From NCBI RefSeq assembly GCF_000027125.1, contig NC_017626.1: DNA of 64,000 nt. One strand, given 5' to 3'. This document shows positions 62,901 through 64,000 of the stretch, in pieces. Within the stretch, counting starts at the first letter, position 1. Each line of letters opens with the position of its first letter. The stretch is from Escherichia coli 042. GTDB lineage: Bacteria; Pseudomonadota; Gammaproteobacteria; Enterobacterales; Enterobacteriaceae. Position numbers: made by a program.

Positions 62901-64000
62901 TGATGACAGTGTTTTCCAGTTGTTTTCAGCCAACCATTTCATTTGTTTCCGGAATGTCTCGGGAGAAAGTGTAACCAGTCCTGGGCAATGGCTGACATGA
63001 TGATACATTAATACCGGAACATGATTTGCTTTAAACAAAATGCCTCCTCCGTTTAAAATTTAAAGTTTCTGGCACCCAGTAAGTAGAGATAAAAGGAAAG
63101 CCTAATAAAGTTGGTGAACTTTATATACTACTAAATCAAACATCAACAATTTATAAACAATAATATATTATCATATCTTTTAAAAACGGCTCACTAAGAA
63201 CCTTGAGGTGGCACACTAAATTTAGCTACCTGAACAGAGGTGATATGCTCACCTCAGAACAACACAGGTGCCATAATGAAAAAAGAAATTTCAGCGCAGA
63301 GTTTAAACGCGAATCCGCTCAACTGGTCGTTGACCAGAAATACACCGTGGCAGATGCAGCCAGCGCTATGGATGTCGGCCTTTCCACAATGACGCGATGG
63401 GTGAAACAATTACGTGATGAGCGGCAGGGAAAAACACCAAAAGCCTCCCCCATTACCCCGGAACAAATTGAAATCCGTGAGCTCAGGAAAAAGCTACAAC
63501 GTATTGAAATGGAAAATGAAATATTAAAAAGGCTACCGCGCTCTTGATGTCAGACTCCCTGAACAGTTTTCGATAATCGGGAAACTCAGGGCGCGTTATC
63601 CTGTGGCCACTCTCTGCCATGTGTTCGGGGTCCATCGCAGCAGCTACAAATACTGGAAAAACCGTCCTGAAAAACCAGACTGCAGACGGGCTGTATTACG
63701 CAGCCAGGTACTTGAACTGCATGGCATCAGCCACGGCTCTGCCGGAGCAAGAAGCATCGCCACAATGGCAACCCAGAGAGGCTACCAGATGGGGCGCTGG
63801 CTTGCTGGCAGACTCATGAAAGAGCTGGGGCTGGTCAGTTGCCAGCAGCCGACTCACCGGTATAAGCGTGGCGGTCATGAGCACGTTGCTATCCCGAATC
63901 ATCTTGAGCGACAGTTCGCCGTAACGGAACCAAATCAGGTGTGGTGCGGTGATGTGACCTATATCTGGACGGGTAAGCGCTGGGCGTACCTCGCCGTTGT

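Follow-up and report, generated by a model that had tools for sequence, protein, structure and literature searches.

The IS911-like element at the right-hand end of the 64,000-nucleotide stretch of Escherichia coli 042 DNA analysed here (the window; all positions are those of this stretch) is very probably an immobile, decayed copy of an ISEc52-type insertion sequence, located at a fixed site between shf-capU-virK-lpxM and fecEDCBA, orthologous to the K-12 pseudogene IS911B/insO and vertically inherited. We put the probability of this reading at about 0.93. The left 797 nt of the pseudo-IS, which belongs to the IS3 family and measures ~1,247 bp, occupy positions 63204..64000 on the plus strand, and the rest lies beyond the window end. 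The sequence from 63195 to 64000 is 100% identical to that of E. coli CV839-06, ETEC1731 and ETEC1747, in which the element runs on to ...GTTGACCACAACA, and the identical copy in CV839-06 served as the full-length element for our comparisons; the searches covered collections of E. coli genomes and of plasmids. The start of the IS at 63204, with the letters TG, is where an earlier note on this DNA had placed it.

The same note described the element as IS911-like, which holds at the family level, but not in the sense of IS911 proper. The full element shows 98.2% nucleotide identity to ISEc52 (over ~1,256 nt) and 97.5% to a second annotated ISEc52 copy, versus 91.8–91.9% to two copies of Shigella IS911. 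The ISEc52 references are an E. coli IncI1 plasmid copy and the copy on K. quasipneumoniae pKA1-1, and the name itself is that of the PGAP annotation of the relatives' copies, "IS3-like element ISEc52 family transposase". The IS911 references, from S. flexneri pWR501 and an S. dysenteriae plasmid, are annotated "IS3-like element IS911 family transposase". At 76 of the 80 diagnostic sites, defined as those separating the ISEc52 and IS911 references, the 042 copy carries the ISEc52-type state. By ISfinder convention, isoforms share ~95% nucleotide identity. Near-identity is found with the PGAP-named ISEc52 copies and not with the IS911 type sequence. Judged by nucleotide identity, the element is an ISEc52 isoform and not IS911 proper, because of the 98.2% versus 91.8% identity and the predominantly ISEc52-type diagnostic sites.

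Within the window, the differences from the E. coli plasmid copy of ISEc52 amount to 12 substitutions and two 1-nt deletions. The length, the TG...CA ends and the orfA/orfB layout are the same in ISEc52 and the 042 copy, but the latter lacks one A of the A7 run, one A of the A6 slippery run and one C in the DDE core, and positions 9–11 of its left inverted repeat (IRL) read CAC, which is IS911-like, where ISEc52 has TTT. Among IS3-family elements, IS911 serves as the type for programmed -1 frameshifting. Shigella IS911 shares with the element type of the 042 copy the 36-bp inverted repeats, an OrfA with an HTH and a leucine zipper, orfB in phase -1 and the architecture of A-AAA-AAG with downstream stem-loops (PMC2909936, PMC4066793), and its first 60 nt are near-identical to those of the 042 copy. 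The upstream Shine-Dalgarno-like stimulator reads GGAG in IS911, but GGAA in both the 042 copy and ISEc52. No second IS911-like copy for comparison was found within the 64-kb window. Two sequences are all that is related to it there. One is a single uninterrupted ORF of 379 aa for an IS3-family transposase (57842-58981, minus strand), which is only 32% identical to ISEc52 OrfAB and apparently needs no frameshift. The other, at 41383-41484, is a further IS911-family remnant, a piece of 34 aa with 74% identity to the C-terminal end of ISEc52 OrfAB.

Two of the lesions are single-A deletions in runs whose lengths are uniform in the intact relatives. All five of those examined, namely ISEc52 from the E. 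coli and K. quasipneumoniae plasmids, IS911 from pWR501 and from the S. dysenteriae plasmid, and K-12 IS911A, have A7 after the ATG and A6 in the A-AAA-AAG motif (ATG+A7+G and TT+A6+GG), and these two runs are the longest homopolymers of the intact element. The earlier note had taken the canonical runs to be each one A longer than those of 042, and had named a reference with equal run lengths as the finding that would overturn its case; it was right on the canonical lengths, and none of the five relatives is such a reference.

At the start of orfA, the ancestral ATG (63276..63278, plus strand) is followed in the 042 copy by A6 (63279..63284, plus strand), the first single-A deletion, in place of the A7 of the intact relatives, and the sequence then reads GAAATTTCAGC. 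Translation agrees with the claim, already made from the A6 run, that this ATG is out of frame with the orfA body: its frame stops after 38 codons, and the conserved body lies one frame away. An upstream ATG at 63245, which follows an 8-nt Shine-Dalgarno match (GAGGTGAT), is in frame with the body in the A6 allele, and the orfA body thus still has a start codon. The resulting OrfA-like ORF of 100 codons (63245..63547, plus strand; Pfam HTH_Tnp_1, E=7.6e-14) is the longest ATG-initiated frame over the body by translation, and the start of the PGAP pseudogene in CV839-06 corresponds to window position 63245. The ATG and its Shine-Dalgarno match (63236-63247) are conserved in ISEc52 and IS911, 31 nt upstream of the orfA ATG; in these intact elements the upstream ATG opens an out-of-frame uORF of 16–20 codons that overlaps the orfA start.

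The second single-A deletion affects the frameshift site. In IS911, which carries 36-bp inverted repeats, ribosomes translating orfA (phase 0) undergo a programmed -1 shift into orfB (phase -1), and the product is the OrfAB transposase (PMC2909936). Few heptamers promote -1 shifts in E. coli as efficiently as A-AAA-AAG, and a background of ~0.04% is reported for constructs that lack a motif (PMC4066793). The slippery region of the 042 copy reads ATATT, A5 (63526..63530, plus strand; A6 in intact relatives) and GGCTACC; the slip-site sequence, TTAAAAAGG, is the A5 allele of an A6 parent. The motif ttaaaaagg and a frame ending ILKRLPRS* had been reported, and both are present: the 0 frame runs TTA-AAA-AGG-CTA-CCG-CGC-TCT-TGA, and by translation the premature TGA that ends the orfA body frame lies at 63545..63547 on the plus strand. 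The orfB frame (63531..64000, plus strand; ...WAYLAV) is open to the window end, lacks its own start codon and is bounded upstream by a TAA. It matches Pfam HTH_21 weakly as well as the start of rve, with 100% in tblastn. In the 042 copy this frame (GGC-TAC-CGC...) is in phase +1, not -1, and therefore a -1 slip cannot fuse the two frames into OrfAB. The ATT-AAA-AAA-GGC phase that gives IS911 its OrfB AUU start is also gone in the A5 allele. Two frames joined by an A-AAA-AAG heptamer with orfB in phase -1 are found in all five intact relatives and are missing from the 042 copy, which is a lesion and not a different design. Scanned against Rfam at E<=1, positions 63000-64000 matched nothing, and the curated frameshift-element families therefore do not apply.

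A third 1-nt deletion, CCA[C]AGC, is located ~126 nt past the window end in the identical copies. It does not fall in a homopolymer and lies within the HSDQG motif of the rve (DDE) domain (aa 218-316 of OrfAB). In silico repair of the three deletions yields an uninterrupted OrfAB of 389 aa, identical to that of ISEc52 at 384/389 positions, which scores 379 bits against NCBIfam NF033516 (transpos_IS3, IS3 family transposase; cut-off 160), 53.7 bits against Pfam HTH_Tnp_1 and 106.7 bits against rve, and thus displays the HTH and DDE domains of the IS3 family; the unrepaired in-window frames match HTH_Tnp_1 and the start of rve. The repaired coding sequence contains five amino-acid changes relative to ISEc52 and zero stop codons. 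As the coding sequence is almost undamaged beyond the three 1-nt deletions, the decay is shallow.

The element ends in imperfect terminal inverted repeats of the 5'-TG...CA-3' type, with TG at 63204 and, from the CV839-06 copy, a right end of ...GTTGACCACAACA. The left inverted repeat, for which we adopted the 36-bp length given for IS911 (PMC2909936), reads TGAGGTGGCACACTAAATTTAGCTACCTGAACAGAG (63204..63239, plus strand) and bears private substitutions at 63207, 63218, 63224 and 63227; in the alignment, IS911, ISEc52, K-12 IS911B and the plasmid-borne fec-adjacent OHT76 copy all read TGAAGTGG...CTGAATTTGGCCACC. The right end is ...GGAGGCCAGTTTTAGTTGACCACAACA versus ...GGTGGCCAGTTTTTGTTGACCACTTCA in a functional copy, a difference of three or four substitutions. 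The flanks, CCT on the left and GAC on the right, differ, and a 3-4 bp target-site duplication is therefore absent; ISEc52 on pKA1-1 is flanked by GTT/GTT. Given the three 1-nt deletions and the degraded ends, the copy lacks the combination of start, frameshift site, orfB and matched ends that defines an autonomous IS. Scans for sigma-70 promoters and terminators, applied to the IS left end and to Shigella IS911, returned matches at chance level only.

The short A runs could also be homopolymer errors of the assembly that conceal an intact IS, one of two explanations which the earlier note had left side by side. Both differences do fall in homopolymers, the classic site of such errors, and the assemblies of ETEC1731 and ETEC1747 differ by 1 nt in C and T runs of the region. 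However, hundreds of complete genomes, produced in many laboratories and countries, have runs of just these lengths. The 806-nt query 63195-64000 is matched at 100% identity by three further complete E. coli genomes and at 99.9% by no fewer than 27 others, the carriers coming from pigs, humans and the environment on several continents. Identity of at least 99% was obtained in 411 E. coli records with a 71-nt query around the start run and in 443 records with one around the slip run; these queries were centred on the runs, such that one indel or substitution brings the identity below 99%, and a few of the matches may be partial alignments. A 201-nt left-junction query, comprising the left flank, the mutated IRL and the A6 run, was covered to at least 80% in 464 of 5,426 genomes and reached at least 99% identity in 430 records. 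The O104:H4 strain C227-11 aligns with it 201-to-201, with no indel. Moreover, the A5 lesion is present in K-12 MG1655, the third deletion of the same element lies outside a homopolymer, and every carrier that we examined bears the PGAP label "IS3 family transposase; frameshifted". Across the 25 kb of 39001-64000, comparison with the three nearest genomes revealed four private SNPs and one private 15-bp non-homopolymer deletion, and no private homopolymer indel. The assembly-error reading is highly improbable and effectively refuted, and since hundreds of independently sequenced E. coli share the element, it is an ordinary annotated pseudogene. Both deletions are, by comparison across genomes, real, inherited mutations. 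The alternative of a decayed pseudo-IS offered in the earlier note is the one supported by the equal run lengths, the PGAP 'frameshifted' labels and the lesions of K-12 IS911B/insO, and the scepticism that it advised toward other homopolymers of the window is unwarranted for 39001-64000.

A few further differences were observed in this region. At 54215, the 15-bp deletion private to the window affects the spacer that separates a TetR/AcrR fragment from a DUF2254 gene. At 53015 it is ETEC1731 and ETEC1747, not the window, that are 1 nt shorter in a C run, with an istA annotated as 'frameshifted', and at 59644 ETEC1747 is 1 nt shorter in a T run, with lpxM as a pseudogene; these C-run and T-run differences may be homopolymer errors or real variants. 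The virK gene (60171-61121, minus strand) is an intact ORF of 316 aa in the window, and in CV839-06, ETEC1731 and ETEC1747 it is annotated with an internal stop. Position 60857 within it is C in the window and A in these three genomes.

To the left of the element lie the polysaccharide deacetylase gene shf (62217-63038, minus strand) and capU (61126-62214), followed by virK and lpxM, and to its right, in the identical genomes, a 258-nt ORF and then fecEDCBA. Of 5,426 complete genomes, 2,627 have the right junction, and the pseudo-IS is an old, fixed feature of the fec island. By position it is orthologous to IS911B/insO, the pseudogene that adjoins fecE in K-12. In K-12 MG1655, IS911B/insO is a curated three-fragment pseudogene of the KpLE2 element, adjoining yjhV-fecE, and it has in common with the 042-type copy the right junction, the neighbour fecE, the A5 lesion and, in orfB, the C deletion. 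In contrast to the A6 of the 042 copy, its start run is still A7; the pseudogene is interrupted by IS30D and a fragment of IS600, with a loss of ~130 nt, and its left flank is nanXY-yjhDE, whereas that of 042 is shf-capU-virK-lpxM. Left of position 800, 52 of 53 diagnostic sites in K-12 IS911B have the IS911-type state; to the right of it, 21 of 21 have the ISEc52-type state, and the right third of the K-12 copy is thus identical in type to the 042 copy. Our search of the literature on the shf-capU-virK/fec junction and on ISEc52 found nothing specific to the pseudo-IS.

At this one locus the fec-adjacent copies mix SNPs of the IS911 and ISEc52 types in patches, and they have been cut short in different ways, by IS30, IS600 or a group II intron. 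In strain NC19 the arrangement is that of K-12 but unbroken, and the copy has A7, A5 and the C deletion; a short IS911-type patch is present in the plasmid copy of OHT76. The C deletion is found in nearly all sampled copies, the exception being MSHS 133, which is IS911-type in that region. A5 occurs in the 042-type, OHT76 and K-12-type copies, and A6 at the start, among the sampled copies, only in the 042-type and OHT76; UTAK-15 keeps A7/A6 and has a 3-nt insertion just downstream of its A6. Among the sampled locus copies the A5 lesion is therefore seen on two different SNP backgrounds. We considered the A5 shared with K-12 as proof of common descent and rejected it as such: the SNPs around it are of different backgrounds, and A6 is found in one of the copies sampled at the locus. 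Since the lesions are unevenly shared among the locus copies, a single origin and any one order of events are possibilities only, and the pattern reflects either short-patch recombination that reshuffled SNPs around retained lesions or repeated loss of the same A. Both IS911-like elements of K-12 are broken by IS30 at the same position, directly after GGCTAC, 6 nt past the slippery run, and the 3-nt insertion of UTAK-15 is at the same spot. The K-12 element named IS911A is actually ISEc52-type, with A7/A6 intact.

We propose the following course of decay. An intact element makes OrfA from phase 0 and the OrfAB transposase via a programmed -1 ribosomal slip on A-AAA-AAG. As the deletions fall in the two longest homopolymers, one A was most plausibly lost from each by replication slippage, and one C has also been lost in the DDE catalytic core, just past the window. 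The start deletion has put the ancestral ATG out of frame, and that at the slip site has abolished the slippery heptamer and the OrfB AUU start, leaving orfB in +1. A fusion protein, even after a +1 event, would break at the C deletion, before the second catalytic Asp, and the four substitutions at the left end and three or four at the right would leave the ends degraded. From its reading frames, the element is predicted to be unable to supply its own transposase, and this, together with the degraded ends, would make it a fossil that is inherited vertically with the fec island. Some residual product may still be made, for example from the 100-aa OrfA-like ORF beginning at ATG 63245.

Such a product raises the question of whether the dead transposon still acts in trans, through an OrfA-like regulator in the form of a 100-aa HTH/leucine-zipper protein from ATG 63245. 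Conceptually, a -1 slip at TTA-AAA-AGG restores the normal OrfA tail and a +1 slip fuses it to orfB, and occasional tRNA-Lys slips of either kind, with the rare Arg codon in the A site, could thus yield a full-length OrfA tail or a DDE-less OrfAB fragment, products which could bind the ends of active IS911/ISEc52 copies. The in-frame ATG with its 8-nt Shine-Dalgarno match, the intact HTH_Tnp_1 domain and the scarcity of coding decay beyond the three frameshifts would suit this idea, as would the fact that OrfA is a known regulator and that truncated OrfAB[1-149] binds the IRs (PMC2909936). We nevertheless consider it improbable: the promoter scan stayed at chance level, and recent shared ancestry, not constraint, accounts for the near-identity among carriers. 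The ratio of 5 nonsynonymous to ~2 synonymous changes relative to ISEc52 is as expected without constraint, and the ORF is dispensable, because many strains carry the IS truncated by IS30, IS600 or a group II intron. A more specific version, in which recoding at TTA-AAA-AGG (a slippery Lys codon, then a rare Arg codon) and ATG 63245 would make the fossil a domesticated trans-repressor damping active IS911/ISEc52, and in which the same A was perhaps lost independently on IS911-type and ISEc52-type backgrounds, is quite improbable. If true, independent A losses would single out the frameshift site as one through which IS elements are preferentially inactivated.

The A runs might instead be contingency repeats, phase-variable switches that toggle transposase expression, and strains do differ in run length at the locus, with A6 or A7 at the start and A5 or A6 at the slip site. 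For efficient phase variation, however, a run of 5-7 A is short. Moreover, the allele states follow haplotypes and do not vary among near-identical genomes, and most sampled copies carry the non-repeat C deletion, which kills orfB regardless. The chance that the runs act as switches is very small. A vertically inherited, decayed ISEc52-type copy remains our preferred explanation.

To conclude, the element is an ordinary pseudogenised member of the IS3 family, already annotated as such in K-12 and by PGAP, and the value of our findings lies mainly in quality control and annotation. Its frame anomalies are genuine biology and therefore should not be "repaired", and its proper name is ISEc52-type, not IS911. 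The pseudo-IS provides a stable positional marker of the fec island, as its right junction is present in about half of the complete E. coli genomes, and its three lesions, together with the SNP mosaic, are possible characters for tracing the recombination of the fec island.
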